DNA of 63,983 bases, counting the filler, from Hausera hauseri (Eukaryota), in the NCBI GenBank assembly GCA_046269625.1. It is 13 parts of 13 records of this genome, joined end to end, with 100 filler letters (N's around TTAATTAATTAA, not from the genome) between each part and the next. Parts side by side here need not be neighbours in the genome. Positions count along the whole stretch, not along the records: positions 10,308 to 14,806 come from JBJURY010552561.1; 12 more parts are not named here. One strand, given 5' to 3'. Made by a program: the position numbers and the translations under genes. The notes beneath the pieces are model-generated. The model saw only the letters and a list, made by a program, of their open reading frames with translations. It was not told the origin of the DNA and did not search any database. Every line of letters starts with the position of its first letter. Within the stretch, counting starts at the first letter, position 1. This document shows positions 216-53,403 of this stretch, in pieces.

Positions 216-1650
216 ATGTGCTATCGACAATCCGCAGATGATCCCAAGATGTTGTATTCACCAAGAGAACCTAAAAATATCGAAACTAGATCGACAGTTT
301 GGGACAACCCAAGATTAAAAACCTTTCAACATACTGAATTACATACAAACAATCGAGAGCCGCTAATCAGTACTCATGAAATGGAAGAACTGCATGTAGA
401 AAACAATGAATTATATCCAAACGAAGAATTAAGACAATTATCGGAAAACATAGTATCCGCCCCAGAAGTACAGATAAACGGACACAAAATATCAGAGACT
501 AGACGTTCGAAAGTAGAATAAAACTGTTTTGGAACAGTGATTGAAGGAAGACCTTTCGTTAAAATCATTATTGAGGATTTGGAAGTTTATGCGTTAATCG
601 ATACGGGTTCCGAGATGTCTTACATCAAAAATGATTCAATACCTCAGACGCTAAGAGGACAGTTATACCCGCCGTCTACGAAAGATCCAGGTAGTACAGG
701 AGCTTTCGGCCAAATGTCAAAACCAATGTTTAAATTGAACCAAGAAGTTTAATTAGTTGGACAAACATGTCGACATGAATTTAGAATCATGGAACAATTA
801 ACTGACGACGTCGTTCTATGGTGCGATTTATTGAAAAGGCTACCAAATATAGCAATTGACTTACAAACAGAAAAATTAATAGAAATCAGACCCAATAAAG
901 GCGTGAAAAACGCTAAGGATAGAAAATTTGGAGACGTATGGATACCAGTAGAGGAGAATATCCCACCAAAAACGGAGATAATAATTTACGTACAAATTCA
1001 GCAAGATGACGATCAGCCAGTATACTTTGAACCAAAGGAAACGTTAAATCCAAATATAACACTTAGTAACATACTTACGAGAGTGCACTCCGGACGTGTA
1101 CCGATCCGAATAGCGAACAATGCACCAACTCCTATCAAACTTCATGCTTACACTACTCTAGGAGATACGTATAGAGTATCGTCAATAACTATTGAAGAAA
1201 AGCCTTATAAGTATGCCGAATTTCCGCCTCATGTTGAAACTAAATTCTCCCCAGAATTTTATGGTCAATTTTACGAATTATTGTGCCGATATAAATCGAT
1301 TATTGCTAAGGATGAAGAGGATATCGGTAAAGCAAAAGCGTTAAAATTAACTATTCCGCTCAAGAAGAATCCGGGTTCAAATGAAGAAATAGATCTGGAG
1401 GATCCGAAGATGCCAAAATGGTATCCTCCACCACATTCGATAAGACCCGAGATAACAAATGAAGTCGAACGGATGCTTAAAGCTGACATAATCAGGCCTA
1501 GTTATAGATACTGGTACTCGCCTATCCTTATGGTTAAAAAGAAAGGCACTACGAAGCACTGATTTTGTATCGATTACAGAGCTCTAAATAATCTTATGAT
1601 GAAAGATTATTTTCCACTACCATCAGTGAAAGAGGCCACATCACAATTTC
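216..1650 (+). pseudogene. pol: gag tail / aspartic protease / start of RT (in-frame stops, truncated at about 1650)
   Basis: ORFs 216-521, 537-752 and 789-1562 are in one frame; DTG motif; RT motif continues past TGA 1560 to about 1650. Confidence 0.85.
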
Positions 1651-2783
1651 GGAAGATTTCAAATCGGCCTATATGATGTAACGACAAAGGAAGTGAAAAA
1701 TTGTAATTTTGAGCCTGGAGAAAATATGCAGTGCTGCGACATAGAGTTTGGACACACGTATAACCTCACATATCGTCTATACTTACCATATTCATCCGAA
1801 GTTTATATTGAAACAAAGCCACATTCTTAATTAGTCATCCCTGCATGGAACAGACATCAAGGAGTAAAACTGAATGAAATATTACGATCCACTGACCCAG
1901 AGATAAGAATACTAGACGAAAATATTCAGAGAATCTCCGTGAATAAGAATAAACGATGCATTCAAGTAGATGCTAGAACAGGATTATCGTTCAGTCAGGA
2001 AATTAGTATCACGTTTGAAGCAACAGTTGGACCGACTCCAAAGATAGAATATTGTTCTATTTGAGCAGGCGTGCAAAAACCATGCTGTAAAATACCCGTA
2101 AACCGAGAATTAAAAATAAGATTTGACTTATATGAAGTACGGCCGAATAAACCGTGTATACAGTTGAGAACCTACTATCCAGAAAATAGAATTTGGGAAA
2201 TTCCAGTAACGACGACCACCAGAAGACCAGCTATCCAAATTAGTACCATTACGTCAATCACTACATCAGCCAGTGTGCCTAAAAGAGAATTATGAAGTAT
2301 CCTATTAAATATTTGGCATATCAGTCTAAGATCGTGTTCCCCGTGGAAGAAAAACAAAATTACGATATATACATAAATTTCCGGACAACGTATAACGAGC
2401 AAGTGGTGACGCTATTTAAAGGTACTTACCAAACAGAGTGCAATCTGTTAAAACCACAAACAACGTATATAGTACAAGTGTGTGCCGAAAACAAACAAAA
2501 TCAGACTGTTACATTGCAAACTTTAGACGAAATTCGTGAAGAATCCTATGTATACGAAGATGTAGATGAGCAGATCACAACTCCGATCACTACACACGCC
2601 CCAATGGGATTAACTACACTATCAATTATATCCATCTCCATACTGTCAACATTTGTTCTCATTATACTAATTGCGATTTTTCGGTTAGTTACCAAAAACT
2701 GCTATTCTAAGAGTTCTAAAAACTCAGAATAGGAATTAATGGAACTGGAAACCTCTGTTGATCCGTATGATAAAATAACCTGA
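1651..2783 (+). pseudogene. Env-position type-I membrane protein: two C-x9-CC modules, FN3-like domain, Thr-rich stalk, TM helix
   Basis: CNFEPGENMQCC and CSI*AGVQKPCC; LKPQTTYIVQVCAEN (FN3 signature); TM LSIISISILSTFVLIILIAIF. Confidence 0.7.
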
Positions 2784-2885
2784 CAACTACAGAGCGGGTT
2801 ATTCTGTCATCTAACAAAGAATTGGTTTAATTTTAAAACCATCCTTTGTCGTAAGATTAACCCTTACTGTTTATTTTTCAGACTG

Positions 2886-4122
2886 ATGAGTAAAGAAAGA
2901 AACATAAAACCGGATAAAGGACGACCTAGGATCGACGGATCACAATCTACCAAAGGGCGAGAACAATGTAACATTAATGAACCATCAAAACGCCGATTTA
3001 GTATCGACAAATTCTTGCAGAATTATGCTACTATCTTCCGCCCAAATTCTAAATCGATATATAGAGAAATACATAATGTGCTACATGAGAAAACCTCCGT
3101 GAAGTATGATCGAACCTGTCAAATTCCTAACAACTTAAAGGGTATAACGGAAGAAAATAGGATTGTTTACCTTTACTCCATGAGAGAAGACAAAGATGTT
3201 CGAGGATACTCACTTAAACAGATGATCACTTACGGGGATAGACAAACTATTTATATTCACCTGGCAGACGGTGAGATATATTATCGATTTAAAGACCAAG
3301 AATGGAACATAAACGATGGAAGACAATGTAAATTCAGTACACTTAGCTTCCGTAGTCAAGATTTGCAACATTATGAGTTAGAATTCAGAGTAGCCGCGCT
3401 TCCCGTAAAAATAATGTTTGAGGTAACGCACGATGGTTACCCATATATCAAATGACTACCCTTGAAGTTCTACAAACAACCGTCAGAAAAGGATTTGGAC
3501 ACATTCCTACAATCGTATAGACTAGTGAAGGATTACAGAAATACCAGAATCATAGCAATTAACTGTGGAGAAGCAGAAAACGCACAGAAAATCCCGATGG
3601 AAGTGTTAGTTCGAGAAACGAACGGAACAGAAGTATATTATACAGTCATCAGCCCAAGAAAACGAGTTCGTGAGACTTATTATGATACGACAGGAATTCG
3701 TAAGGAAACACTCTCGAAAGGCAAAGACATCAAGCTTGTTCAATCCGAATTAGAACATTGTTTATATGGATATATCATAACAGGATATCGTATCAATGAT
3801 ATTGTTGAATTATTAAAAATACCCATGTCAAGCATCGTAGGAATACGGGAGATAGAATCACACCCAGTAGTTGCTGAACAAAGTAAACGAATATTACGAA
3901 AAAGAAACTATCCCGCACCAAAAGTTATGGACGCCTATTTCAAATTAATGGTCGATGCCATGAACAGCGAACATGCTAAGATTAGCAAACTGTTAACTGC
4001 AAGTCAACGTACTCGCTACTTACGCGACATATATGTAGCTTTAAAATGGGACCATGAGTGGACACCTAATAATCCAGAACAAAACTTAAGAAGTACAACC
4101 AAACCGGAAAATATAAATAAAA
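2886..4122 (+). pseudogene. Accessory protein with C-terminal degenerate DEDDh (REX4/ISG20-like) exonuclease fold; one in-frame stop at 3453
   Basis: IIAINCG..NGTEVYYTVISPRKRV..TGI....L..VQSEL...LYGYIITGY..IREI parallels REX4/ISG20; shares QIPNNLKG, ISPR and LKW with ORF 48677-49990. Confidence 0.7.
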
Positions 4123-10207: not shown

Positions 10208-10364
10208 NNNNNNNNNNNNNNNNNNNNNNNNNNNNNNNNNNNNNNNNNNNNTTAATTAATTAANNNNNNNNNNNNNNNNNNNNNNNNNNNNNNNNNNNNN
10301 NNNNNNNTCTTGAAATACTATGTCGTGGGCAGTGGCTAATGTGAAACCACTGTGGAAAAGAAGA

Positions 10365-11000
10365 AAAGAAATTTATATTCTGAGGAGTATGGAAAAGAAA
10401 AAGTGTTCTGCTGAAACGATTTAGAATTCCAGGGTGTCAGAAGTTATACCGAAATAATAGCAAAATGTAACACCAACAAACGCCTGTATTTTAGAATTTT
10501 CAGGTGGTAGGACCGAACGGAATCATAGGAAACAAAAAGAGATAATACCTCCAGAACGGGCCGGTAACAAATTCAATAAAATTAAGGCAGCCAATAGAAA
10601 CTACAATAATAGAACTTTTGCCAGCATCAATTTCATTCATACCGGCGTAAATAAGGATGTGATTTGTACGGGAAATTGTCAACATTGCCGTATAAATATG
10701 ATGGAAACGACCGAATTAAACAACCTTGCCCAAAAACGTTCTACATAACATCGGTGTAACAGTGTAAGTCGTGTCATTTGAAATCTTGTATACAATCAAC
10801 AAAGACAACGACACCATTGTCGGAAATAGCAATTTATGTCGCCATTTTAAATCAGGTACATCATTTACAAATCCTAAAGGAGTCATACAACCTATTGACA
10901 ACAAACCTCCGAAATATTGAATAACATCGGTTTGCGCTGGACTCATTGTCGTTAAATTATAACTCAAAGTGAGTATGATACTTATCAGGGCCCGATAAAA
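10365..11000 (-). pseudogene. DPAGT1: DPAGT1/ALG7 (dolichyl-phosphate GlcNAc-1-phosphotransferase) fragment, apparently intronless
   Basis: GGLLSIGCMTPLGFVNDVPDLKWRHKLLFP, TNHILIYAGMNEIDAGKS, MIPFGPTT and GILNRFSRTLFLF match DPAGT1 LGFADDVLNLRWRHKLLLP, TNAINILAGINGLEAGQS and GILGHFSKT. Confidence 0.85.
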
Positions 11001-11079
11001 CATGAATCTCAATTCCTCCTCGATATGAATACTCAAACGTGAAAAGAAATCGGCAATCTCAGATTTACTTATATCTGGA

Positions 11080-13070
11080 AAAAGTAATCCTATAGTGGTA
11101 GACACAAAGCTTTTAGTAAGCAATGTTGTACAAACATTGGCATAAACTGTAATAAAGGAGAAAAATGATAGGAGGGTATTGTTAATAAAAAATGTTAAAA
11201 AAATATTTGTCAAGCGAATAACACAATAATAGCAGTCTCACCCCGTCGTGTTTCCTTAAAAAGGTTGCCGGTGGATATATTTGATTAATTAAAGTCTTTG
11301 AATTGGGACTTTCAGAGAACTTATTCTTCTCTATAGAATCGGTATCAGTTGTATTATCGAGGGGCAAGAGTAGAAGTTTGTTATTGATCGGAGTTTGGAG
11401 TTCAGATCGTGGGAATCGAACCCACGCCCTCAGTCTGGGACCAGATAATCTATTAGCGACAATTATCTCCCATTTATCAAAATAAAATGTATCCAATAAC
11501 CAATCGGTACTTCCGGGGTTTGTCAAGTCAAAGTTTTCATTTAATAAGATATTGGAAAAACATACTTTCGAATGCCAGTTTCTTGGATCAACATCTTTAA
11601 CGCCCCAAACAATGCTCATTTTAATCCAATTTACATCAGTTGGATTGTTACGTTTAAAAATAAAATTCCTTTTCCATTTTTCATACGTCAATAAAGGATG
11701 AGAAGTGCTTATAATGGTTTGCGTTAAAAATGCTGGATATGACAATGTGGGATAGTAGAAAACACTAATAAAATCCACGGATAACACAAGTAAAAATTTG
11801 GCAAAAAAGAAATATTTAAAGGATAATATAAAGTTTACATAGAAACTTAGTAATCGATCATAAATCTTGTTGATTGAGTGTAAATATAAGAACATTCCTT
11901 TAGTCTCAACAATTTTTTGTTTGAACTAAGTGAACAAATCCAATAAACGAGTGATATTAAAAAACATGCAGTAAGGACATAATGAACAATTATTAAAATG
12001 GTACCAAATATGGCAAAACATTTAATTGCAATTATCGATGAATTAAAGCAAGACAGTAAAGATAAAGCAGTTGAAAAACTGGTCGAGAATATGATTATAA
12101 AAGTCGAATCAATCGTCAGAAAATTTTTTGTTTGTACCGATGAATCATACTCAACATATTTCTGCCATTGTAACATGTACACAAAGGTATCATCAGTTCC
12201 CAAAGCCAACAAAATCAAAACGTTCATAAAATTAACATATGGAAATATGTCTAATTGAAAAACTCGAAAGTAAATGATATATGATAGAAAGAATGAATTG
12301 GATAATAGAAAAATTGCCGAAACGGCAAACAAAATCGATTTACCAAAAACGAGTAGCAAAATAATCAATGGTATCAAAATAAAACTTTCATTAAAAAAGT
12401 CCACCATTAGACTGTTTCTCACAGTTTCATTTTCATTCAAAACCGTTGAACCTAACAATTCCACTTTATTGGTTTGCAGAATTTTCAGTAAACGTTGAAA
12501 AACAACAGCGGATTCCGTGGGAATATCGAGGAAAATCATACTAATTCCAGGATGAGACAATTCCATTTTGAGGGAACCTTTTAGTGGAATGAAATTATAG
12601 AACAGACGCATGATCCAACAATCTGTGGTTGTGAATGAAGTTTTCTCTCGTCTATTCATTAGACGTTTTGAGTATGCTTTAACTTTTTTGTTTACGTAGT
12701 TCATGTCAAATTCATCAATTTCAGAACATTTATTTCTGCGTGCAATTCGTCTGTAGACTTCTGCTTTCGATGTTACTGTAATTTCATGCTTACTTATCAA
12801 TTTGGACATCAATCGAATTGCGTCTTCAATCCGACATAAAGTATTTATTTTGTGATGTGAAGATACTGTTTTCTTTGAATTCGTTAATTCTATGCCTTTA
12901 CTTAGAAGCAAATTGTAATGAAAATCTGAGCATATTTCCAGTTTCTTCTTTCCGAATTTCTTCTCTACTCGACCCACAGACAAATGATCGTGGCGTTTAA
13001 ATCTGCCATTCCTATTGAATTTCTGTTTTGAATCTTCTTTCAACTATTCAGGAATGGTTACTGCTTTACC
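11080..13070 (-). pseudogene. disp: Dispatched-like sterol-sensing-domain membrane protein fragment (frameshifted, interrupted)
   Basis: FPYVNFMNVLILLALGTDDTFVY (GxDD), STSFSTALS..SSIIAIKCFAIFG, HPLLTYE and IVWGVKDVD..FDLTNPGSTDWL match Dispatched. Confidence 0.8.
11396..11445 (-). tRNA. Degenerate 3' half of a tRNA-Leu (variable arm, T arm, CCA end); not a functional gene
   Basis: TCTGGTCCCAGACTGAGGGCGTGGGTTCGATTCCCACGATCTGAACTCCA resembles the tRNA-Leu(CAA) 3' half. Confidence 0.65.
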
Positions 13071-13110
13071 CATTTCGTCAAGTATGCCAAAAATGAAAGA
13101 AAGGAAGTCG

Positions 13111-13121
13111 TTCTGACACCA
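13111..13121 (-). promoter_or_regulatory. Putative tRNA-Leu primer-binding site
   Basis: TGGTGTCAGAA lies 1 nt after ..AATAAAACCACA. Confidence 0.5.
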
Positions 13122-13122
13122 A

Positions 13123-13962
13123 TGTGGTTTTATTATTGCAATGACAGATTTCATTAAATCCAAATAACAATTATAGGATATATGAATGCAAATTAACACA
13201 GTTAATCTTTTATTACAATAATTTTTTTAAATTCAAAACAAAACTGTCAATTTATCAATCATGTATATCAAACTCATATCTGCTGTATTTATCTTTATTC
13301 TTTGAATGTACGATCTTGAAAACACTTGTACATTTTGAAGTGAAATGTTAACGTCTAATTCTCTGCTTCGAACAAAAGATTTCATTTTCTTTTATCTGAC
13401 CAAATTTTCTGCATGAACGACTCATAAGAGAATAAACCTCATTAGAGAATAAACCTCTATGTCAAATATTTTCATTTGGAAACACAAAATCTTAGACATC
13501 TTTGTTTTCTCAATTATTTGGTAAAACATTGGCAACAAAATTAACATCATGGACATAAGTACAATAATCTAAGATCAGTATGTTAAAGTCAGATTGTTGA
13601 TTGTTTATTTGTGGAATCTGGAATAGAATCTATTTTCAGGTCATTGTTCGAAAATTTGATGGATAATTTTATTTTGGTAGAACAATCATGAATATTCGAT
13701 CAAAACTTTTACTGACGTATCAGTCGACCTGTCTTTGAACTTTATTGTGATCTTTCCATGTAGTTGTATCGTATCAGGATTTTTATCTCGGACGGGAAAC
13801 CCGAAATTCGAATGATTGTGATTCAGACGAGAAACACTGCACGACGAAGCAGAACGACCAAACCGCCCTATTCCTCGACAAAACAGTAATCAGCAGCAAC
13901 AACAACAACAAAACTATATTAAAAACTATATTAAAACAGCATGTAACTTGTTAAGCACAACA
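13123..13962 (-). repeat. Putative LTR of CsRn1-like element (TGTTGTGC..AACCACA)
   Basis: Follows PPT GGGGGAGGGTGA (13963-13974); ends at ACA before a PBS-like site. Confidence 0.55.
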
Positions 13963-14097
13963 TCACCCTCCCCCGTGTCAAAAGTGGAAACTATAAGGAT
14001 AAAATCACGAAGTAGGATTTGTGGTTGGACTATGATGAACTATACAGAGAAGATGAAATGCAGGCTGAAAATTACGAGGTAGATGGTTTCTATTTGA

Positions 14098-14806
14098 TTA
14101 TTCAATTTTGGTGTGAACCAGACGTTGAATACCTTCATCATTTTTTACTTTACTGTACTTGCTAAAAGTAACAGTTTTGTGCACTCTTTGCTTTAGTTTC
14201 CGTTTGTTGCGATTCTTTGGAAGGGAAGATATTGCAATCTGTCGCATTAAATGTGGTATCATGCTGAAACAAACTCGGAGAAGAAAAAGCAGTGGTCGAA
14301 AAAAAGGTGGGAGGAGGAAATGGGGAAATGGTGGGAGTAGAAATAGTGAGTGGAGTAGGTGTGCGAACAGAAACAGGAACAATAGAAACTGTAGTAGGAG
14401 TAGAAGCAGGGGTAGAAACAGAATGAAATGTAGGAGTTAAAAAATTTGCCTGAGTTTCAGTTGGAGAGGTGTCATCCACAAAAAAGGCAGGTTTCACATT
14501 ATTTATATGGACTGTTAGTTCTTTTCTGTCTTTAAGGATTATAGCGTTGTGAGAAAATAGTTGAACTAGCATATAAGGCCCGAGATACTGCGGTTGAAAG
14601 CCACACGGTGTTTGATTACGCAGCCAAACAAACTGTGCAGAATACAAGTCGTCAGGTAAATATGTTTTATTGTTGTGTAGTATTCTACAGAATGAGTCTT
14701 TACTGACTTCAATGAAATGGTCCTGTGCTGCTTTGATCTTTTCATCTGTAGGCGTATTATCTAGTGCGGTTAACTCGAACAAGGAGCGAACAGGTGTTCC
14801 AAATAA
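14098..14806 (-). pseudogene. CsRn1-like integrase C-terminus with S/T-rich tail
   Basis: FQPQYLGPY, VHINNVKPAFF, terminal KTVTFSKYS..EGIQRLVHTK. Confidence 0.85.
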
Positions 14807-15602: not shown

Positions 15603-16694
15603 TGTGTCTTTGGTTCTTCCATTTATTGTATATGTCGGATTAACAAGGATGATTTTTTTGTGAGACAGATATTCCTTTTTGAAAAAGAATTTCGAATGAA
15701 ATTAAGCACTCAAATATATCTAAAAATCCGCTGTAAAATAACAAGAAATTGTATAGACAAAATGGCTTAAATAATTTATTGATTAATTATTTACATATCT
15801 AAAAAACTCCAAGTTGGAGTATTAAAACAAAAAGTATCACATTTATTTCAGAAACGTTCTTTTTACCCGCATTTCATTTTTTTTCCGGCATTCGTATACG
15901 ATTAAAGAATAATTGATGCGATTGATTATAAAAAGGGAAATAAGATTTCGTTGAAATTTAGCAATTTCCTGGATTAAAGTCACATAGCCATTTGTCGTCT
16001 CAATATGACCATCGTTAAATGCTTTTCTGATGATAGATATTACCCAACGTATAGGAACAAAAGGTTGAGCATGAATTTGTGTTACATTTTCTAGTTATTC
16101 CAGTTCGTGGGGAAATAGTAATCCTTCTGTAAATTAAGATTGAAGATTTGGAAACTTTTCTTTGAATTGAATGCTAATTCTAGACAAACAAAGATTTAGT
16201 GCCAAGAGAAAATAGCGACCACAGGTTCGTCGTAAAAGTCTATGCTGAGGATCATTTGTATGCCAATGTGTTCCACGGAGTTGGAAGCGTTTGATATTCC
16301 ATGGCAAATGGACATCGTAAAATACAAAACGTTTATAGACCAGCGATATGGAGATATTGAGAATAAATGAAATTTTAATCAGATCAAGATTTTTCTAATT
16401 TGTCTGACGACAGCTTCAAATTGTTCTTAATACTTTTCACTCATTTGATATTTCTATTCTAACCAGTTTAACAAGACTACCATCCCATTGAGTGAAAATA
16501 ATTTCCAAAAGTAAAATGGTTTTGGATTACCGGCTTCTGAAAAATATGATACTGTCATAAGGAGTATCGATTTTGATAGGACTCGGCGAAGGAGACCGGC
16601 ACGGTCCGAGGCCTGGGACGCCATTGAGGCGATAACAGGCGCCCGACGTCGCCCAGACACCCGGCCGCGGGGCGTGCAAACGGTTGGCACCGCA
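15603..16694 (-). repeat. Putative cargo-bearing LTR (TGCGGTGCC..AAGACACA)
   Basis: Starts right after PPT GAGGGGATAG; the likely end has AATAAA then ACA at the point where hAT homology begins. Confidence 0.55.
15893..16558 (-). pseudogene. best: Bestrophin N-terminal half, apparently intronless, decayed
   Basis: MTVSYFSE..FWKLF/QWDGSLVKL, FEAVV..LDLIKISFIL, LPW, RLLRRTCGRY, KEKFP, FVPIRW match bestrophin MTITY..WRGSIYKL, LIPISFVL, RLLRRTLIRY, KRFP, WVPWVW. Confidence 0.85.
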
Positions 16695-25684: not shown

Positions 25685-26290
25685 NNNNNNNNNNNNNNNN
25701 NNNNNNNNNNNNNNNNNNNNNNNNNNNNTTAATTAATTAANNNNNNNNNNNNNNNNNNNNNNNNNNNNNNNNNNNNNNNNNNNNGGTAAATCGACAGATT
25801 GCTGTTGCACGGTCGTTTCGTTTAACTTTAAATCCACGTTTAATTGTTCTAGAGCATCAGAAAGTTTATCCAAATTTTCACCCAAAAGCAGTTTTACACG
25901 ATAACTGTACTTAAGTGCATATAGAGACACGGGATCATTCAATGAAATCAGTATGGGCATTTGCAAAAAATGCATTTCGTACTTACGAAAAATTCGTTTC
26001 GGTAAAAATGTGTTTGGCGTGCCGACGGTTCTGATTTTCGTTTACGTATTCCAATCATTGCATTTTGCCTCTTTGTGTCGGTTTTGCTGCTGCTGCTGCT
26101 TTCTGAGCAAGATTCTGTTTCGTTTCCAGACAATCAATCTGCAAACAATCACCCGGTTTTTATAACTGTTGGACAGGTGGTTCAAGCAATTTGACATTAA
26201 AATTGTCCTTCTTATAGCCAAACAACCACGGCCAATCTGAACTTTCATCATTGGCATCATTAAGTAGAATCGTTTTATCGTTGTCGTCGT

Positions 26291-26789
26291 CTACCATGGT
26301 AGTAATGTCTGAATGGGCATGGGAATGGTATTTATAGTTTGTTGTTGTTGTGCACAATGTACATTATTTTGATTCACTAAAACATTTACGTGGTTTTTAA
26401 TTTGATTAATAATCGGTTCATAATCCACTGTTCGAATACCGAGTACAATTTTTCCACTGTTAAACACTGACACAGTCTCAGTGCTGGAAGCAGTTCGGGT
26501 TCATACGTATATTCAGTAACGGCCATTGATAATTTGTACAAATTGATTGTTTGATAGTCTTTCGGTCGTTATTGATTGGATTTTGTCAATGACAATTCCG
26601 AATGGTACTTGTTTATAAGCTGTGATTGGTTTGCGACAACCCATAATACGACACTTTCCCGATTGAAATACGATGCATGTAAAATCCGGTGGACACTTGA
26701 AGACAAACTGCCTCGGCTTCCATTGATTAAAAGGTTGTGTGTTAATGTCACACTCGGTAACGTCCGCGATAGTTAATATTAGCTAACAT
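26291..26789 (-). pseudogene. TATA-binding-protein-like gene of the Maverick
   Basis: TCIVFQSGKCRIMGCR, INLYKL..YEPELLPAL, VFNSGKIVLGIR match the two TBP repeats (ALIFSSGKMVCTGAK; YEPELFPGL; IFVSGKVVLTGAK). Confidence 0.75.
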
Positions 26790-26894
26790 TATGGAAACAG
26801 TGTTTATACTATAGCTATTTATATATGCGTGTGTAACACGATTACAAACAAATTATGTGGTGAGAAAAGGTTGTAGTATTACTATTATTATTAG

Positions 26895-27520
26895 ATGAAG
26901 TTGCAGAATGATGCCATTTTCCAGATTGTATGCCCCAGTGGAAGTGTGTAAATTATTGCAGAACTACCGTGACATGTTCCATTCAGCAATATACAATCAC
27001 ATACTGGCATCAGGGTGTTGGTGATGATGGTGAGTGCGGTCTGACAAATCGGGAATTTTGCAAATTGAAATCGATAACGGTAATTGATGTGTTTGATGAG
27101 AACTGGTCTGAAAGATTATGCAAAGGTGACGTTATTGTCATTGACGATTTATTTCAGGAAGCCGCGAAATAATCGGACTTCAACAACCTATTCACGAAGA
27201 TCGCACGTCAACGTGGTGTGACTGTTACTTTCATTACGCAAAACATGTTCCATCAGGGCAGACAGCATCGAACAAGAAATCTAAACGTACACTGTTTGGT
27301 GTTGTTCAAAAATTCCCGTGATCAAACTATCATTATGTTGCAAGACAAGTATTTCCTCACAATCGAGCCTACTTTATAGATGCATATCATGATGCTACGA
27401 CCGAGCCACATGAATACTTGTTCATCGACTTTACACAACAGTGTCCCGATGACGTGTACAAACAGACATTTTCAATCAGAAAGGTGCTGTATGTGTCTAA
27501 ACATTCAAAAATCGACGACA
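26895..27520 (+). pseudogene. A32/FtsK-like packaging ATPase (Walker A deleted in this copy)
   Basis: VIVIDDL, LFTKIARQRGVTVTFITQNMF, RTRNLN..LFKNSRD, EPHEYLFIDF. Confidence 0.85.
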
Positions 27521-27753
27521 TGATTATGATAAAAATGAAGAATTTCCAAAAAACCATTGTTAAACGTAAACCTACTACCAAGCGGGTGTCCAGCGGCAAG
27601 AAACGTGTATCAAAACGAACCACCGCTACAGTCAAAAGGTTAATCAATTCTGTGTTTCACCGAACAACAGCAGCAAGATGCAAATTACCATCACACTGGC
27701 AACGGTTAAACAACTACGTCTCATCAGAAGCATCAATACGTCCACAAAAAACC

Positions 27754-28075
27754 ATGCGATTCAAACGTAGTCAGCCATACTTTATTGCTTTGCTCAAGGC
27801 ACCTACGAGACATAAGCGAAACATGCTGCGGTCATTCCCACAATTTGTAGTAGACGATTTGATAAAAATTTTATACATTATCGTTGTGTCAGGTTGACAT
27901 TGGTAGTGCAAAGCGGAATTTATTAAAGTATCGAAAACGACTAATTGGCCTTGCCAACTCCCGTAGTAAACGACTAAAACGAGAGGTCATGTAGTGGCAA
28001 GACGGCGGACGCCTTGGTGCAATTCTACCGATTGTTACGTCATTATTGGGTAGGCTCATTGGTGGAAAAGTTTAG
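27754..28075 (+). pseudogene. Small basic Maverick virion-type protein ending QDGG-hydrophobic helix
   Basis: ..KREVM*WQDGGRLGAILPIVTSLLG; homolog at 52110-52440. Confidence 0.5.
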
Positions 28076-28184
28076 TATAAACGATGAAGGTAAGTATAAG
28101 GTTATTTGCTATATGGTGCATGGTTCTCATCTTTCTGTCCCAGTTTATCGAATCTTTCATTTACGTTTCGTTCAAATTGTTGTA

Positions 28185-29241
28185 ATGCAAGCAAAACCGA
28201 CACCATCGACGGCAAAGATGGGCGATGTGTGGTTCGACCCGCGTCATCCGGTCGGGTATACTGCTGTCGACAAACTGGCAAAGACTGTCAAACAGACTCA
28301 GCGACAAACCCAACGTCGGCTCGGGAAACAGTTACCATACAGCCTAAACAAGCCGATAAGGCGATTTCCAACTCGTGCATACCGTGTTGCCGGTGTAAAT
28401 AACGTATGGCAAATGGATCTAATGGAAATGATTCCGTATGCCAGCATCAACGATGGGAATCGCTACGTGCTGACATGCATTGATGTGCTTATTTGTTTTG
28501 CACGTGCAATTGCCGTGAAATCTAAATCCGGGAGAGATTGCCGACGCTGTTCAGACACTAATACAACAACAGCCACCGAAGCATTTACAAAGAAATTTGA
28601 ATAAGGAATTCTACAACTCCCACGTTGAAGCGGTCTTGAAACGGTTCGGCGTAAAACACTACTCGGTGTTTTCCCAATACAAGGCTGCACTCGTTGAACG
28701 ATTTAATCTAACATTGCGCGGTCACCTAAACAAATTCTTTACGAAGCAAAGCAACAAGCACTTGGTCGATGTACTGCCGGATATTATTCATGCATACAAT
28801 CATTCAACATATCGTGGCATCAATGAATTACGGCCGGTTGACGTAATCGATGATATGGACATGTGGCTTTATCAAAACCGAACACAACGACAAACAATTA
28901 AACGCCCAAAATATAAAATCGGTGATTATGGACGTATAACAAAAATATGTACGACACCATTCATTAAGAATTTCAATCAGAACTGGAGCGATGAGGTTTT
29001 CCGCATTTCAGCAATCAACACAAAACAAACACCTGTCATGTACGCTTTAGAGGATGAAAACGGTGAGGAAATATGCGGTAAATTCTACGAACAGGAATTG
29101 CAAGTACTGCCCTAAAAACCCGATGTATATCGTATTCAGGAAATTCTACGTTCACGCGGCAAAGGTTTGAATAAACAATATTTCATCAAGTGGAACTGAT
29201 ACACTACACCGAGTTGGATGTTTGCATCGCAGATTGAGTGA
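28185..29241 (+). pseudogene. Maverick retroviral-like integrase with C-terminal chromodomain
   Basis: WQMDLMEM, YVLTCID, KEFYN, KAALVERFN, NWSDEVF, GKFYEQEL, YRIQEILR..YFIKW..SW. Confidence 0.9.
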
Positions 29242-30297
29242 TGAGCATTTATTTGAAACTTAATAGTAAGTGATTATCAGAACATGACAACAATACCGCT
29301 GAACGGTTTACCATGACGTTGGACCCGCCGCTCGACTTACGCCACGGAGTCTGGGAAGTGGCTTTAGCGGAATTCACGTTTACATTTTCATTAATAACTA
29401 CGTGAGAACAGTGGAATATACTATACCCTAGTAAGACAATCTCCTGCATCTAGTCGTTTGCAGTTAGTCCAAGACTCTAATGGAACATTTTACGTTCGCA
29501 ATTACAAGCGGCAATATTTCCCGGTTTATTTTTCATTTAAACAATCGATTGGTGCTAAAACACAAACATACGATTGAATTGCAATTTAAATCACTAGCCG
29601 ACTCTCAGGCATTGGGTTTTCAATCATCTGCCAATATGCGGTCAAAAGGTCTACAACTCGGTGGACATTGTATAATTAGTGAAAAATTGAACGTTTCCCA
29701 AAAACACCATGAAAACCACCGATATTACAGTGAAATGGCAAAAGACTGAATCATTTTTTACTCTCATACAACAGGAATGGGTTTTCTTACGGAAATGAAA
29801 ACATAATTGTGTACAACTATCAAGGCAGTAGCTAAATTGGCTCTCGAGACATTTGAATTAAACTCTGATGGTCGTATTTCGTTTACACTACACGATAATG
29901 TTACATATTTTGCCTATGATGAACTATTGGCAAGGAATCTGGGTTTTAAGAAACGAGAATTCGGTCAAACCGGCGCCGGACTGCCCATAGTTGCTAAAAA
30001 AACCGTCTCTACGAAACATTTCATCGAATCAATATTTTAACGATCTAACCGAACCCGTATGTCGGCAGGCACAAAAAACAACTATCGGCTTCTATTGGAC
30101 TGGATCCGGACACGTACAAAACACCGGGCGAAACTGCTCATGTAAATATCATCCGGCCCATGAATTTATCGTTGTCTCACAATGTTCTGCACAGTATTTC
30201 CATGCATATAGTAGACGAATTTTGGAAACCCATTAAATTTCTGTTTAGATCAACGACACATTTGACGTTACATTTTCGACGTCGTCAACGTCGATAA
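29241..30297 (+). pseudogene. Minor capsid protein (penton-like), copy 1
   Basis: MSIYL..PPLDL..WEVALAEF; C-terminal LTLHFRRR. Confidence 0.7.
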
Positions 30298-30336
30298 TAA
30301 ACAAACTACGTCATCATCACCATCATCATCGAGATC

Positions 30337-31396
30337 ATGAGTATTTACATGGTGTTACCGAGCAACAGTTGTCCGACTACTCGTTCGAACAATTCCGCTA
30401 GTGAATACGTTGCAGATTGGAACAATCCTTTGGATTTATTTACTGGACAATGGGAGGTTGCACTGACGGAATTTAACTTTCCCTACGCAACGGTAACATT
30501 AAAAGATAGTATGAAAATAACGTACAACAAAACTGTTACAGAAACCAAAACACATTCGTGTCCTCTGACACTTACTAACAATAAAATAACAATTGGAGAA
30601 TCGGGCATTTGCACGACAGAAGCAAATTACGGTATATTCGGCAAGATCGGTGTTTTTATTATAAATCCAAACTTACATTTTATGGAAGATTTTGAATTTA
30701 CCGTTACCTTTGAGTCCTCTGAGATGACTCAGAAATTTGGATTCAAAAATATAAGGTACAAAGATAAAGATATTAAAAGTGAATATGCAGTTGCTCCTGT
30801 GTATTACCAGACAACGGTGAAATTTACCTACACAACAGAAAAGGTGTCGACGTCATACGTATCGAATGGAGACCATGTCTATTTTGAATCTGTAGCACAT
30901 CTCTGTTAACACTTCTTTAAGTGAAAAGTACAAGGCGATATTTACAGTTTCCGAGTCAGATGCAAATGGGTACATTAAATTCGAACTGGCTAAGGATATT
31001 GTTGACATTTCATTGGACAAAGCTTTGGCCATGGTATTGGGTTTTGAAAAGCACCGGCTTGAGACATCATATACGAAGACAGGGGCGGAGATGGCAAATG
31101 TTGCAACACTCAAACCCAAACTAAAAACGGGACTAAGTCAAATGTACATTTACGTGAATGTCACCGAACCGATTTTGGTCGGTGGAGTACGTGTACCGCT
31201 ACTCTGTACAATTTATCCGGAAAGCAGCAAATATACTGCCGGCGACAATGTCATTGTCAATCTCGATAATCCAATGTATCTGCCTGTGGCATCCACATCT
31301 ATAATCAATGTTGAAGTAAATATCCAATGTGACGCGGGCTACCTTATTGAATTTCCGTACTGTACCACAACCAGTATCACTCTTCATTTCCGTTAA
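30337..31396 (+). pseudogene. Minor capsid protein (penton-like), copy 2
   Basis: YMVLPSNS..WEVALTEF; MYIYVNVTEPILVGGVRVPLL; NPMYLPV; ITLHFR. Confidence 0.85.
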
Positions 31397-31403
31397 ATAC
31401 AGC

Positions 31404-31769
31404 ATGATTGACTCTGAAATCGTTTCCATTTACAGTAAGCCTCAGCAGGGTGGATAACTGTCGTATTTCGTTGGTAAACAGTATGGCTCCGGATGGTTAC
31501 GTACATTAGCACATTTAGCAATTCCGGTGTTGAAGTGTGTCGGTGCCATGGCAGCAAAAACAGCACAGGACGTACTATATGAAAACAACTCGATTTTACC
31601 ATCACTGAAGAAACATGCATTGTCCGAAATAAAAAGCGGTGCACCGGGAGTCGTTGAATCAGTCAAAAAACAATTCGTTGGCAGTGCCTTGATGATGAGA
31701 AAACGCCGTAGAGCATCATCGAGTTCAACAGCTATAAACAAACGTCGTCGTCGTACGATTTTCGATTGA
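31404..31769 (+). pseudogene. Small pVI-like virion protein
   Basis: QQGG and QYGSG sites, amphipathic GWLRTLAHLAIPVLK, basic tail KRRRRTIFD. Confidence 0.55.
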
Positions 31770-31784
31770 TTGACAGATAGACAA

Positions 31785-32081
31785 ATGGCATCTGCAAAAT
31801 ATGAATTGTGTACACTGGACAAAGGCGCACCACAAGTTGTTATTGACAATACGGCATTTGAAGAAATCTACCCCGTTGATTCGGTTTCAACGGATGATAA
31901 CATTAACATTCAATTCAACATTATGGCATCGGACAATGATATCTGGATTTGAACGATACGCTACTCTATGTAAAAAAAAACTGTTCAAAAAGATGCATTA
32001 ACAATTCTCGCTGCAACAGACACTGTCACACCGGCCAATTACTTTTTCCTCACACTGTTCCAGGAGGCTTCACTGACTCTG
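31785..32081 (+). pseudogene. Maverick major capsid protein N-terminus
   Basis: FEEIYP..IQFNI..LNDTLLYVK; matches 34312-35535. Confidence 0.8.
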
Positions 32082-32181
32082 NNNNNNNNNNNNNNNNNNN
32101 NNNNNNNNNNNNNNNNNNNNNNNNNTTAATTAATTAANNNNNNNNNNNNNNNNNNNNNNNNNNNNNNNNNNNNNNNNNNNN

Positions 32182-32760
32182 ATCTCGATCAAAGTGTATT
32201 TCGTTATCTATTCGGTTTCTCTGATCATTTCTGCGGTTATCATTTTTACGTGAATCAAAATTTTTCTGATCATTTTCAAAAAATCGATTAACGTTTTTCT
32301 GTCCTTTTGGTGCGGCAAATGATTCTATCATTTGGGCCTATTTACGGCATCAACAAAGTCACTAGGATATTTTGCCTGTACTTTATATTTCAATTTTGTA
32401 CTTAGTCCGTTCAAAAATTGAGTGAGCAATAATATGTCGGTATTTAATTATTTTTTCATAAAATTTCTTTTTTCTTTTTTCTACATCTAGTCGGACTGCT
32501 TCGACGTATTGGGAGACAATTTGTCATAGAGCATAGGCATATAGGGTGGCAGATTCATTATATTGCTGATGTCTGTTTTGTAACTTAATCAATTGTTGGT
32601 GTGGGGATAAGGTAGGATAGAACTTGTCAATAAAGGCAGTCTGTACGTTATGCAATTTGTCCTTTTCTTCATCTGTCAATTCATTGTAAGCCTCAGCTGC
32701 CATGTCTGTGAGGAACAATGGTAGTCGTCTGGCCATCTCGTTCTCTTATAAACCCATAGC
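32182..32760 (-). pseudogene. gag: Gypsy gag remnant
   Basis: RRLPLFLTDMAAEAY..F..QQYNESATLYA; QFLNGL. Confidence 0.65.
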
Positions 32761-33310
32761 TATAAGTAGGGGGGAGTGAGCGCTCCACCGCACTTCTCTG
32801 ATTGATCAGTCGACCAATTTTCTCCACATGATTGGCTATTTCGAGCATTTCGAAAATTTTCTCACAACCCCTCCCCGCGGGGACACGCTTTGGACATCGA
32901 ACCGACTCAAATCGGTAGAGCTCGACAATCTTAACAAAATTTAATAGCGGTGCGGCTTACAGAAATGTAAGAGAGAGGCGCTAGAACAGGAAGAATCAAA
33001 ACAGGAAATGCTAACGTGTAACGTGAAACATGGTGGTAGCATGGAGACAATGTATACAAAGGATAAATCGATGTTGGCGAATCCAATGGACATGGTTGCA
33101 ACTTAATCAGACAATGGGAACATGGGGAAAAATCTATGGGTAAATTTCAAACTAGGAAAATTTCCCCTTACACAAGTCAAACGGTGATGGAAATGGGTTG
33201 AGCATATAGCCCATCAGTAGTTCTGCTAGGGAAAAAAAAGAGTTCTGGACCAAAGGGGGGTCCATCCACGCACCAATTGATTAATCACAAGCGGCTCGCA
33301 TGCTGATTCG

Positions 33311-33671
33311 TCAATTCGACAACGGCGAGTTCATTGGTGCGGTTGGTTTTTGCGTGTCGCAAAAGACAAATCCAAGAAAAATGCAAAAGAACAAAACGAA
33401 CTTTTTGCAGCAGCAAAATGTGAGCAGAAGTGGATAAGAGAAAGTATAGAGTAGAGTATGGGCGTTCTAATGATGTGTGAAACATTGGGTTCGCATGTTT
33501 GGGAAAAGTGGAAAAGTCGGTCAAAGAGAGAAAAAGGTGGCGCCAATGAAAACGCAGGTGAATTTCAATGGATTCATTAATGTTAGCGCCGGTAGGTGAA
33601 TGGTTTGTGTTCAAATCGACAACGGCAAGTTCAGTGGTGCGGTCGGTTTAGCTTGTCGCAGAAGATAAAGC
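33311..33671 (+). repeat. Imperfect direct repeat of about 60 bp, two copies 300 bp apart
   Basis: tcaattcgacaacggcgagttcattggtgcggttggttt (33311) vs tcaaatcgacaacggcaagttcagtggtgcggtcggttt (33611). Confidence 0.8.
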
Positions 33672-33890
33672 CGGGATACGACGAGTTGACACGTGCAATG
33701 GTAAGGCGTAACGTTAAACAAGTGTTCGTTACGCACCAGACATGCCTGCATGCAAAACGAAATAATGAGTTGTGACGTAAAGCGTCTGTTTGTGCGTGTA
33801 GCAAAGGGACGTAGAAGTGATGGCAATAATAACGCATGTATAACAAAATACTGTATTTTTCTCAAAATGAACACAAAGTACAATCATTGT

Positions 33891-34200
33891 TCATCCAAGT
33901 ATCTGTAATGTTGGCCACAGTAAGCAGTAATGTCCACACAATACGGTCAGTGGATGTTGATAATGAAATAGATTGTATTCAACACGATATGACGCTGGTG
34001 ATTGTCTTTCAATTTGAGAAACTAACGATGACGGGTAGTAAAATCCGAGTGGATCGAATACTCTGACGACGTTGGTCAGATGGACGTACACAGCAATCCA
34101 ATGTTCACCTGGCAACAATGAAGTTTGTGTATTGACAATAAAGCCGCCAGTCTGTCGTAAATCACACCACGAAATTTCGCACCCAAGTTCAGTTTTCCGT
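33891..34200 (-). pseudogene. Adenain-type cysteine protease of Maverick
   Basis: VNT..PGEHWIAVY, FDPLG, YQHPLTVLCGHYC. Confidence 0.88.
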
Positions 34201-34311
34201 ACTGACTGCGCTCAGTGGAGCTAAATGTAAAAGAATGTAATAGTAATCAAAATAAATTTCTTCATAGCACCACGACGGCGAAGAAGAAGAAGAGGTGCGG
34301 ATTTTATTTAT

Positions 34312-35535
34312 TTATGCAATGACGGTTCCGTATTTCATTATTTCAACCTCGGCATCAAATACACCGTAAATGTACATCACGGTAAACTGCTCCAACGCTT
34401 TAGCAAAGTGACCCTCCAGTCTCTGTTTTCACTGGTGAGATAGTTGAGTCTGTTCAACGTCATAATTTTCAGCTAGTACAAAGGTGAAGAATGGATAGGT
34501 GGATTTGAAAAAATCCACCGATATGCTATTGTTGATATTTTTGTTCAATGAACCCATGTTGCGCACGATAGATTGCATATATGTGCAAACATAATCGCCG
34601 GTCTCGAAATCCTGCTAGTATGTCTCAACGAAATTCGCATTCGACCCAAACCGATGTAATTTACATTGATATGGGTAAACTTTTCCGAATCGGTGGTATA
34701 ACTTCCCGTTTGTTGAGCAGTCGTTTGAAATGTAACGAACACAAATTTTGGCAATCGCATGTCGCCAAACAGTGCATCTTTGTAAAATGTAGTTGAACCT
34801 TTTGGTATAGTGTAAATCACGAGTTCTATGCGTTGTAATGGGTAACAGGCATTTTGTTTTTTCCAAGCCCAATTGATGTCCCATGGGCACAGATTGTTCT
34901 ACCTTTACACGACGTACGTATAATCGTGCCCCGGTAATTTTCAGAATGGGTTTGAGATTTGCAACTGCAGTTTTCAAACATAAGACATTGTCGCTGAGTT
35001 TGAGTCGAATCATGGATTTAACACCAGGCAGCAGGTATTTCGGCTGATCGAAAAAGTCAAAGTACAGGGGTCCACACATCGTAAGTGCTTTTGATTCTGC
35101 CACCCATGCCTGACGGTTTGCAGCTGTGGCGTCATATCCGATGGTTTTCGTCAAATGAGTCGTTTTCGTGTCTGTACTGTAATTCAGAGCCGTTTCAGTG
35201 AGTGCTTTGATACTGAATAAACTGGTGTTGTCTTCAATTTTGAAGCTGTTTAGAGTCATTGAAGCCTCCTGGAAAAATGTGAGGAAAAGGTAGTTGGCCG
35301 GTGTGACAGTGTCTGTTGCAGCGAGAACCGTTGATGCATCCTTTCTAACAATGACTTTTACATAGAGTATCGTGTCGTTCAAATTGAGATATTCATTGTC
35401 TGATCCCATAATGTTAAATTGAATGTCAATGTTATCGTCCGTTGAAACAGAATCTTCTTCAAATTCTGCATCGTCAATAACAACTTATGGCGCGCCTTTG
35501 TCAAATATACACTATTCATATTTTGCAGAAGCCAT
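34312..35535 (-). pseudogene. Maverick major capsid protein (double jelly-roll, PY)
   Basis: GPLYFDFFDQPKYLLPGV, ARLYVRRVKV, RLPKFVFV, C-terminal YIYGVFDAEVEI. Confidence 0.85.
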
Positions 35536-35541
35536 TTAGTA

Positions 35542-36928
35542 TCAATCAATCGAAAATCGTACGACGACGACATTTGTTTATAGCAGAAAAGTAGCTGATC
35601 TACTACGTTTTTGTTTTCTCAAGCCACTGCCAGCGAATTGTTTTTTGACTGATTCAACGACTTTCGGTACAGTAGTTTTTATTTCTGACAAGGCGTGTTC
35701 CTTCAATGATGGTAAAATCGATTTGTTTTTATATATTACATCTTGTACTATTTTTGCTGCCACGGCTCTAATACGCTTCAACACCGGAAATTCTAAGTGA
35801 GTCAGTGTACGCAACCATCCAGAGCAATACTGTTTACCAACGAAATACGGCAGTTCACCGCCATACTAGGGTTTAGTGTAAATGAAAACGATGTCAGAAT
35901 CAATCAAGTTGTTCGTTTCGACGGAAATGAAGATTCAGACTGGTTGTGGTACCGTACAGAAATTCAATAAGGTAGCCCGGGTCACATATGATATTGACTT
36001 CAACATTGTTTATAGATGTAGTTGCCACAGGTAGGTACATTGGATTATCGAACTTGACAGTGACATTGTCGCCAGGAGTATACTTGCTGCTTTAAGGATA
36101 AATTACACGCAGTAGCGATACGCGTATTCCACCAACCAAAATCGGTTCGGTGACGTTCACGGAAATGTACATTTTACTTAGTCCAGTTTTCAGTTTGGGT
36201 TTAAGTGTTGCAACATGTGCAGCCGTCTTCGTATTCGACGCCTCAATCCGCCGTTTTTCAAAACCCAATACCATGGATAAAACTTTGTCCATTGAAATGT
36301 TGAAAATATCCTTAGCCAGTTCAAATTTAATGTACCCATTTTCACCTGACTCAAAAACTTTAAATACCTCCTTGTACTTTTGATTTGAAGAAAAGTGTTG
36401 ATAGAGATGTGCTACAAATTTGCAATAGACATTGATTCCAATCTATCCGTATGCTGTATAGGTAAATTTCAGCGTTGTCTGCTAATATACGGGATTTAAT
36501 CTGCGAACAACTGCATATTCACTTTTAATATGTTTACCATTGTACTCTGTATTTTTGAGTCAAAATTGATGCGCCATATCAGAGGACTCAAAAGTGACAG
36601 CAAATTTAAAATCTGCCATAAAATGTAAGTTTTCCCCTAAAATAAAAACACTGATCTTGCCGTATAAACCGTAATTTTTACTGGTCGTGCCAATGGGCGA
36701 TTCTCCAACTATTATTTTATTGTCAGTAAGTGTCAGAGGACAAAAATGCGTTTTGGTTTCAGTAACAATCTTTTTGTACCTTATCTTCATACTATCTTTC
36801 AATGTCACTGGTGCGTAGGGAAAGTTAGATTGCGCCAGTGCAACCTCCAATTTTCCAGATAAATACAAAGGATTGTTCCAATCTACAACGTATTCACTAG
36901 CTGAATTGTTCGGAAGAGTCGTCGGACA
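35542..36928 (-). pseudogene. Maverick pVI-like gene and minor capsid copy 2 (second element copy)
   Basis: Colinear homology with 30337-31769. Confidence 0.8.
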
Positions 36929-45824: not shown

Positions 45825-47207
45825 GTTCCCGTACCGCGCCGTCGACGCCGGTTGGAGCCGCCGAGACTTGGCCGAACATCCACTGAGTCCAGTTCGGACG
45901 ACGGTTCGACTCGTCCGCGCCGAAGCCCGAGGATCCATCCGGTCCTCTCCTCTACCGAGGACTCGTACGCCTCGGCGGACGAACCGATTGCGGATAAAAA
46001 TAAAATTTTCAAACTTTGTTTGATTTTCGTTTATTGTTTGACGTTGTACCCGTTGGTTTTGCTCGACCGTTTTATAAAATGTAAAACCATGAAAATGGTG
46101 GCAGCGGTTACCGCATTTACGACTTTCAATACAAATTCAGCCATTGAAATCAATCCGGCTCGAACACTGCACACGGCAGTTGATAAAAGTCCGGCTAAAA
46201 GTCGCACAAGTGCCGTCGAAATTAATCCGGTCACACAATCGTATATCAGCAAGTATGATCACGTAACACCCACTGACAGTTTTACTAGTAAAATCAACTG
46301 CAATTAGAAAATCACAATGAGTGATTCTGAACAAGTGCTAAAATATCCTAGCACTAACACACGTGACAACATAATTCACTATGGTGAAACACCATCGACC
46401 GATAGTACGCCAAACGAAGTACAACTCANNNNNNNNNNNNNNNNNNNNNNNNNNNNNNNNNNNNNNNNNNNNTTAATTAATTAANNNNNNNNNNNNNNNN
46501 NNNNNNNNNNNNNNNNNNNNNNNNNNNNTATATGACATTATGAAGATATTAAAGTTACGATCCACACCGGGACATCCGGAGAATAATGGAATGGTTGAGA
46601 GATATATTGGAGACTTGAAAGGGAAATTACAAACGGTAGTAAATACTAGGCAAAATGATTGGGGCGAATATATCAATGCATGTGTTTTCGTAAATCGGAC
46701 ATCGGTTTATGAATCCACTAAAGAGACACCCTTCTACTTTATGTATTTACGGGACGCAAGGTTACCGATTGATCTAGATTTTAATGTGAAACCCATTTCA
46801 CACTTAATGGAAGTAGAAGATTATATGCAGTTAATGCAGGAACGCCTACAGTTAGTATATAAAATGATTGGTGAAAATCAGAAAGATTATAAACTAAGAT
46901 ATGAAAAATATTATGATCAAAAGACCAAACAGCAAAAATTAAAATAGGCAACCAAGTAATGTTATATTCACCGGTAATTAAAAAGGGTAAAACGTCTAAG
47001 TTAGATAGACCATATAAAGGACCGTATGAAGTAGAAAAAATAGATTTACCGAATATTTGTTTGAAGAAAAATAATACTTCTGTAAAAGTCCATGTTAATA
47101 GATGTAAACCCTATGCCAAAGAGAGCAAACTAAGAAAAGGTGAAAAAGAGTCGGTATGTAGCATCAGTAAATAGGTAATCGAAATAAGTTCAACAAGTAA
47201 ACTTCAG

Positions 47208-48565: not shown

Positions 48566-48746
48566 CGGTTAAGTCTAGGGATTGCTGTTTATGCAACCCT
48601 TTTAATAGAGATAACCACATGTCACCAGGTTACCTACAAGAATAAGTTAAAATATAAAACTACAACGATTACCATTGTGTGTTTGATAACCATTGTGCTG
48701 CGTGTAGATATCTGTAATGACTTTTTATTGACATTTCTTTCTACAG

Positions 48747-51383: not shown

Positions 51384-52074
51384 TATATTTTTGGAGTTTA
51401 GTTGCTCGTTGTCGGTTTTGATAGTCACATGTCCAAATCATCGATTACGTCAACCGGGTGCGTTCCGTTGATTCCACGGCGTGTCGAATGATTGTATGCA
51501 TGAATAATATTTGGAAGTACATTTATCCAGTATTTGGTGCCTTGCTTCGTAAAAAATTTCTTTAGGCGACCGCGCAATGTTCGATTAAATCGTTGTATTG
51601 GGAAAACACAGAGTAGTTGTTTTCACCGAACCGTTTCAACACCGCTGAAACGTGGGTGTTGTAGAATTCCTTACCCAAATCCCTTTGTAAATGCTGCGGC
51701 TGTTGTTGTATCAGTGTCTGAACAGCGTCTGCAATCTCTTTACCGGATTTAAATTTGAGAGCAATTGAACGCACAAAACGACTAAACCCATCAATATATG
51801 TCAACACGTACCGATATTCATCGTTAATGCTGGCGTACGGAATCATTTCCATCAGATCCATTTGCCATACATTATTTACACCGGCAGCGCAGTATGAAAG
51901 AGTTGGACACCGACTTCTTATCGGTTTGTTTAGGCTGTATGCTAACTGTTTCCCCAGCCAACGTTGGATTTGTCGCCGAATTTGTTTGGCAGTCTTTGCC
52001 AGTTTGTCGCCGCCAGTATACCCGACGGCATGACACAGATCGAAATACACATCGCGCATCGCTTTTATTTGCAT
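51384..52074 (-). pseudogene. Maverick integrase
   Basis: WQMDLMEM, YVLTYIDGFSRF, LQRDLGKEFYN. Confidence 0.88.
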
Positions 52075-53315: not shown

Positions 53316-53403
53316 TTAAATAATAATACAACCTTTCCTCACATGATTTGTTTAAAATCGTGTTACACATATAAATAGCTATAATATAAACTCTGTTTCC
53401 ATA

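Follow-up and report, generated by a model that had tools for sequence, protein, structure and literature searches.

The third of the 13 unplaced contigs in the analyzed stretch of Hausera hauseri DNA (63,983 nucleotides, contigs joined by N spacers; hereafter the window) carries a mosaic of host-gene pieces. Parts of a Dispatched gene, the 3′ half of a tRNA-Leu and part of DPAGT1 follow one another on the minus strand, all in sense, as the earlier note had stated. The mosaic lies on a 4.5-kb contig (contig 3, positions 10308–14806), which stops within DPAGT1 at 10308. The source organism is an animal with a repeat-rich genome, and at least three contigs of the window carry decayed host-gene pieces adjoining gypsy sequence. 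We consider it somewhat probable that the mosaic is a chimeric retrocopy, built stepwise by template switching in Ty3/gypsy particles, a known kind of LTR-mediated retroposition.

Two public runs contain the stretch, X1 (0.63 of its words) and X2 (0.05), both in the form of contigs and not of reads; no RNA run was among those listed. Depth in X1 is the summed depth of the matching contigs, a rough measure, and 16 of 1589 matching pieces were listed. X2 is patchy and of low depth over Dispatched, and holes in its coverage were excluded as evidence.

Read along the minus strand, contig 3 begins with the C-terminal end of a Ty3/gypsy integrase region and its 3′ tail (14108–14806), 71% identical to the pol of contig 13 over 430 bp and present in very high copy (X1 depth 470–14500). 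A polypurine tract (PPT; 13966–13974) aligns with the equivalent tract in contigs 4 and 8, and a TG start behind it opens the 3′ LTR of this element (13595–13962, its limit near 13595 being a guess). X1 depth over this LTR is 110–246 and drops to 84 in bin 13458–13607; no inverted-end match was found for it in contig 3 at 6 of 8 bases. The integrase-PPT-LTR series belongs to a far more abundant family, with integrase depth in the thousands, and the LTR depth falls about 450 bp before the primer binding site (PBS). The intervening low-copy stretch (13123–13595, minus strand) ends in ..AAAACCACA and is a candidate 3′ part of a 5′ LTR. It is near single copy in the 220 bp upstream of the PBS (X1 depth 17–20 at the listed sites 13207–13320, and 34 at 13344), and had no match in Pfam or PDB. 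X2, a run labelled as another organism, matches 13117–13343 with only 2 changes and 2 gaps; the gypsy and DPAGT1 matches in X2 are mostly 82–90% alike, among the matches listed.

The PBS-like site that had been proposed, ..CA followed by TGGTGTCAGAA, was recovered at 13121–13111 on the minus strand. It is complementary to tRNA-Leu(CAA) and shares 11 of 12 bases with the PBS of Steamer, whose LTR ends the preceding bases resemble. By chance, 0.001 copies of the exact 11-base word would be expected on this strand of contig 3, or about 0.045 when 40 tRNAs are allowed. A one-mismatch search of the window found 2 sites (0.20 expected), the second inside DPAGT1 on the opposite strand, so look-alikes do occur. 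Within contig 3 the sequence preceding the PBS is not repeated and no paired LTR was found; neither a 3′ end nor a target site duplication (TSD) was seen before the contig ends inside DPAGT1. The region had been read as the internal part of a non-autonomous LTR element. The PBS-like site is in keeping with this, but given the missing LTR partner, the low copy number upstream of the PBS, the contig end inside DPAGT1 and the lack of a listed contig across the tRNA joint, it is no more than a candidate reading. The unit was not seen in several copies as a whole: in X1 its DPAGT1 side is multi-copy and its Dispatched side single-copy.

After the PBS, a Dispatched-like coding region was found as proposed, in two frames with one frameshift (approximately 12945–11488, minus strand). 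ORF1 (398 aa; 11847–13043, homology from approximately 12945) encodes the sterol-sensing region (PDB E 1.4e-16), and a profile of 102 homologues (151 bits) adds extracellular domain 1. The continuation in the other frame (11488–11925, within ORF 11182–11925) reaches a WLLD motif at 11488 (PDB E 2e-6; 46 bits with the 102-homologue profile). The profile match stops at position 587 of 954; extracellular domain 2 was not detected after 11488, where a remnant beyond the tRNA was matched by 102 of 500 shuffles. Both extracellular domains, twelve transmembrane (TM) helices and a single frame, as expected of a functional Dispatched, are not all present. A first TM helix running across the PBS was considered and rejected (285 and 299 of 1000 shuffles scored as high).

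The frame change near 11850–11925 is common to the window and X1 (record 3, 11613–12030, 0 gaps). A short intron at this place was rejected as well, as the 5 GT-AG candidates have poor donor sites and would leave loops of 21–41 residues, where homologues have a median of 56. All 8 homologous loci checked encode this part of Dispatched without an intron, in a single frame of 877–1039 residues; these loci were taken from 61 fetched for their long flanks and near-full matches, a scan that favors uninterrupted loci. Absent introns therefore prove nothing here, and an mRNA source is not required for Dispatched. X1 depth over this part is 9–36 (bins 11508–13007), with haplotype contigs at 6–9, two of which sum to 13.6, and no second locus of at least 80% likeness was seen in X1, indicating a single locus and not a parent with its copy.

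The protein encoded by the Dispatched part has changed at 9 of 34 conserved columns, of which homologues keep a median of 96–100% (minimum 43–65%). Under simulated neutral drift of 10%, ORF1 stayed stop-free in only 6 of 300 trials. Of the ORF1 sites at which every X1 contig departs from the window sequence, 7 were listed, and 5 of these differences are synonymous, against 21–28% expected (p 0.006–0.02), the 7 sites coming from the best 40 of 554 differences ranked by support. These data fit either selection that kept the frame open while constraint on the protein was relaxed, or a real gene that evolves fast and broke recently.

Dispatched is interrupted, as had been noted, by sequence that contains the tRNA half, although over about 290 bp and not 250. 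The first 38 bp (11450–11487, minus strand) combine T-rich and purine tracts with a TGT start; from a motif scan they are a candidate PPT plus LTR start, or else a gene scrap. One X2 contig matches this piece, with unlike sequence on both sides, and could do so by chance at 80% likeness. The tRNA-Leu(CAA) 3′ half follows at 11445–11396 (minus strand), with variable arm, T arm, a damaged acceptor strand and a CCA-like end. It was recognized by a T-arm match and, in a by-eye comparison, shares 28 of 31 bases with a published tRNA-Leu(CAA) probe, with 2 gaps; ARAGORN reported 0 tRNA genes. The tRNA species is the one matched by the PBS. tRNA-Leu(CAA) genes have an intron at about the position where the piece begins, and three X1 contigs, among the pieces listed, depart from it at 11445 into other sequence, which is probably this intron. 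The piece looks like a 3′ exon, or like a mature tRNA copy halted at the anticodon loop. Its bin has an X1 depth of 35815 and represents a very high-copy repeat, so that a DNA source of the piece is possible. No X1 contig spans the tRNA joint among the 16 of 1589 pieces listed, and RNA folds of the junction regions were no better than those of shuffles.

Beyond the tRNA half lies a multi-copy, coding-like piece (11211–11395, minus strand; X1 depth 137) in which the ORF2 frame is open throughout, and which matched nothing in protein-family and atlas searches. Dispatched had been thought to resume here in its second TM region. What we found is a marginal match of 20–30 codons, a possible remnant at 11210–11121 (minus strand; p about 0.02–0.04), with a profile score of 4.4 bits (12 of 300 shuffles as high), an ungapped score of 18.4 bits (as high in 10 of 500 shuffles and in 0 of 237 segments of real membrane proteins) and a mean z of 1.1 over 79 correlated homologues. 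The next stretch (10992–11120, minus strand) is open and in frame with DPAGT1, shows no significant likeness to DPAGT1 N-termini and has no match in Pfam or atlas searches; atlas searches on the middle pieces gave no usable match. Two candidates were discarded in this part: that ORF 10716–11237 is wholly DPAGT1, since its first 92 codons are unlike DPAGT1 N-termini (28 of 300 shuffles; mean z −0.32, 60 homologues), and an hnRNP F/H-type RRM at 11100–11030, which had no match in the searches run. An in-frame fusion to DPAGT1 had also been claimed; the ORF is open from stop to stop (10716–11237), but about 50 codons of unmatched sequence intervene, so there is no direct joint between Dispatched and DPAGT1.

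DPAGT1 itself runs from about 10990 to the contig end (10308–10991, minus strand; PDB E 2e-32, profile 155 bits; X1 depth 63–363) and covers about residues 90–306, approximately 215 codons, without an intron. Human DPAGT1 has three introns within this span, and the contig end, at about residue 306, presumably lies close to a human exon border. The closest relative is P0001, with which the window sequence groups in a DPAGT1 tree on a very long branch; an internal block of 37 residues is missing from its gene model, a hint of exon borders within the span. Together, the absent introns, the P0001 model and the human introns make an RNA origin of the DPAGT1 piece likely. The copy is decayed, with several stops, one frame change, no N-terminus and 39 of 60 near-invariant residues kept (homologue minimum 68%), and so has neither the intact frame nor the conserved residues of a functional DPAGT1. 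X1 depth over DPAGT1 and the middle pieces (10458–11357) is 135–363; one X1 contig contains 283 bases identical to the DPAGT1 copy and another differs at 21 of 228. The depth and the divergent contigs indicate that this side, unlike Dispatched, is a family of diverged copies.

Several joints lie within open frames. They were compared with single-base shuffles, which may overstate significance. A run of 60 codons without a stop crosses the PBS (81 of 20000 shuffles), one of 101 codons carries the second Dispatched frame across the 38-bp piece, the tRNA half and the following scrap (14 of 20000), and one of 92 codons precedes DPAGT1 (48 of 20000). Upstream of the PBS (13123–13595), the Dispatched frame is stop-poor, with 6 stops against 14.3 expected.

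The tenfold step in copy number and the unequal decay of the two sides disfavor a single event and point to separate histories. The common sense strand, the processed-looking, multi-copy and decayed DPAGT1 and the tRNA half fit an origin from several templates at the RNA level. To this extent the multiple template switches between mRNAs that had been proposed find support; Dispatched is single-copy, and intronless over this span in the homologues checked, and need not derive from mRNA. In the retrocopy scenario that we favor, reverse transcriptase would first have joined a piece of DPAGT1 mRNA and other scraps into a non-autonomous unit, which multiplied. Later, in one lineage, it would have left the DPAGT1 unit for a packaged tRNA-Leu(CAA), copied this back as far as the anticodon loop and then switched to Dispatched RNA and a PBS-bearing 5′ end. 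We infer the role of the tRNA as a bridge from its being the PBS's own primer species and hence abundant in particles. The SANBR-carrying insert with TG..CA ends on contig 8 and the known LTR retrocopies from two and four genes also speak for this scenario. The upstream gypsy integrase-PPT-LTR would be a separate element, nested or in tandem, and the unit may be translated, now or until lately, its frames kept open while Dispatched lost conserved residues.

The strongest alternative, which we hold to be possible but doubtful, is that Dispatched is the host's own gene, with a large exon and lately broken, that a DPAGT1-carrying repeat was inserted or recombined as DNA, that the gypsy element merely lies upstream and that the PBS is a look-alike. 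The single-copy depth with its two summed haplotype contigs, the absence of a second locus in X1 and the excess of synonymous differences all agree with this, as do homologues that encode Dispatched in one genomic frame and the chance PBS-like word within DPAGT1. Such a gene would nevertheless have to accommodate the frame change found in both X1 and the window, for which the candidate introns are poor, the loss of conserved columns, a frame open through the supposed insertion edge and, if real, a Dispatched-like TM remnant on the multi-copy side.

Rather unlikely, in our judgment, is a more far-reaching reading: that the genome has LTR elements whose long LTRs and leaders carry host mRNA mosaics, with one translated frame under selection and the primer tRNA as bridging template. 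The 38-bp piece would then be a PPT with an LTR starting at 11462, Dispatched would be internal cargo with a frame that passes through the PBS, and the insert on contig 8 (described below) would be a solo LTR of like kind. A long 3′ LTR, present in many copies, would enclose both the tRNA half and DPAGT1 and account for their copy number. The contig 8 insert speaks for the occurrence of units of this type.

A chimera of assembly or amplification, joining single-copy Dispatched to a DPAGT1 repeat via the high-copy tRNA-like sequence, is less plausible again and seems to us improbable. The contig is short and unplaced, the copy-number step falls within the tRNA bin and no listed piece spans it. 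On the other hand, the repeat is only 50 bp long, the 101-codon frame runs across the joint, all 30 bins are covered and only 0.01 of the matching X1 sequence continues unlike the window. We regard as very unlikely that another capturing machine (LINE template jumps, a Helitron or a Pack-type DNA transposon) built a mosaic that merely adjoins LTR sequences. Fusions of tRNA halves with LINE-1 are common, mostly in antisense, according to the portions of PMC13174262 used here, and no LTR pair was found in contig 3; yet the tRNA half here is sense and matches the PBS, no poly(A), LINE or Helitron piece was seen in contig 3 (which stops short of the 3′ end of the mosaic), and the contig 8 insert is bounded by TG..CA with a 5-bp duplication of its site. 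That Dispatched and DPAGT1 are truly adjacent single-copy genes with sequencing frameshifts, an objection raised in the earlier note, can practically be dismissed: both are of housekeeping type and on one strand, but DPAGT1 is multi-copy and decayed, without its N-terminus, with stops and with invariant residues lost, and Dispatched is without most of its second half.

That LTR retrotransposons can capture pieces of several genes is already established. The parts of Tan et al. (2016; PMC5131818) drawn on here describe two-gene LTR retrocopies in flies and a mouse copy derived from four genes plus an Alu, and also maize Bs1, with pieces of three unlinked genes within an LTR element. Judged by its sequence, the locus combines partial host sequences from more than one parent, as LTR retrocopies do, and it also shares with those cases the sense strand, open frames and amplification as non-autonomous units (PMC5131818, in part). 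By analogy, the mosaic would work like known LTR-mediated retrocopies, its membership among them being unproven. In those sections of PMC5131818 the cargo is flanked by recognizable LTR-element sequence and junction microsimilarity was measured, and Bs1 has defined LTRs, whereas the contig 3 mosaic is without recognized borders and has broken frames. Steamer, as far as the excerpted text of PMC8905726 goes, likewise has a Leu-tRNA PBS straight after an LTR ending in ..ACA, but its LTRs (153–219 bp) are paired and enclose gag-pol, and no such pair or coding region occurs here. Helenus TRIMs (Kojima, 2024; PMC10886601) also hold tRNA-derived sequence in a non-autonomous LTR element; as portrayed in the extracts used, they are short, with A and B boxes in both LTRs, no host cargo and a tRNA part that is not PBS-complementary, as opposed to the single, PBS-matching tRNA 3′ half and the unit of over 2.8 kb found here, which does not fit Helenus. 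LINE-1 chimeras share the fusion of tRNA halves in retro-insertions, though these form at the insertion site and mostly antisense to the element (PMC13174262, in part). Literature searches gave no direct report of a captured primer tRNA or of host mosaics inside animal LTRs, and nothing informative on the exon structure of Dispatched; the word tRNA is absent from the main text of Tan et al. (PMC5131818), and its supplements may hold similar cases.

Another decayed multi-gene capture is of modest value by itself. Its interest would be greater if the unusual features hold: the primer tRNA captured at a switch point would document which RNAs are packaged and at which sites reverse transcriptase stalls, and mosaics within LTRs that keep their frame would offer a route of exon shuffling that spreads with every insertion. 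The genome may provide enough cases for testing cargo bias.

Other cargo occurs elsewhere in the window; as the 13 contigs are separate records, these genes have no physical link to the contig 3 mosaic. An insert of 1276 bp on contig 8 (37989–39264, plus strand) lies inside a gypsy integrase region, has TG..CA ends, a 5-bp duplicated site and no internal repeat, and includes part of SANBR (Pfam BTB_SANBR, E 1e-5); it resembles a solo LTR that has taken up host cargo. Its ends may also be read as a 7-bp repeat, and it holds other coding-like scraps, one of them cadherin-like by eye only. A decayed, apparently intronless bestrophin piece (15846–16394, minus strand; Pfam positions 72–232) lies approximately 300 bp past a gypsy LTR start on the same strand, in a layout that resembles contig 3. 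The protocadherin cargo reported earlier had no Pfam or PDB match. A bias towards membrane-protein cargo had been suggested, and three of the four confirmed cargo types (Dispatched, DPAGT1 and bestrophin; not SANBR) agree with it, at p about 0.05–0.08 by hand calculation against a background of 25–30%; the comparison is post hoc and across unlinked contigs, and leaves an enrichment unsupported. Ty1 particles nucleate on ER-targeted RNA, according to the portion of PMC3945221 consulted, which makes assembly near the ER plausible; the present cargo does not support it.

The window contains further repeats. Decayed Polinton-like pieces (integrase core, a weak adenovirus-type protease match and dUTPase) occur at 25785–36928, 51384–55804 and 58483–59935, and are 81–83% alike between contigs 6, 7 and 12. 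At 753–4121 and 46531–49990 (plus strand), protease or integrase pieces precede several additional long ORFs that had no Pfam match, some membrane-anchored or exonuclease-like by eye, possibly representing large gypsy elements with accessory genes. A weak TBP-family match (E 2e-5) lies at 53410–53853 (plus strand) on a contig rich in repeats, related sequence occurs near 26360–26760, and a long satellite array with a 4-base unit spans 55905–58350.
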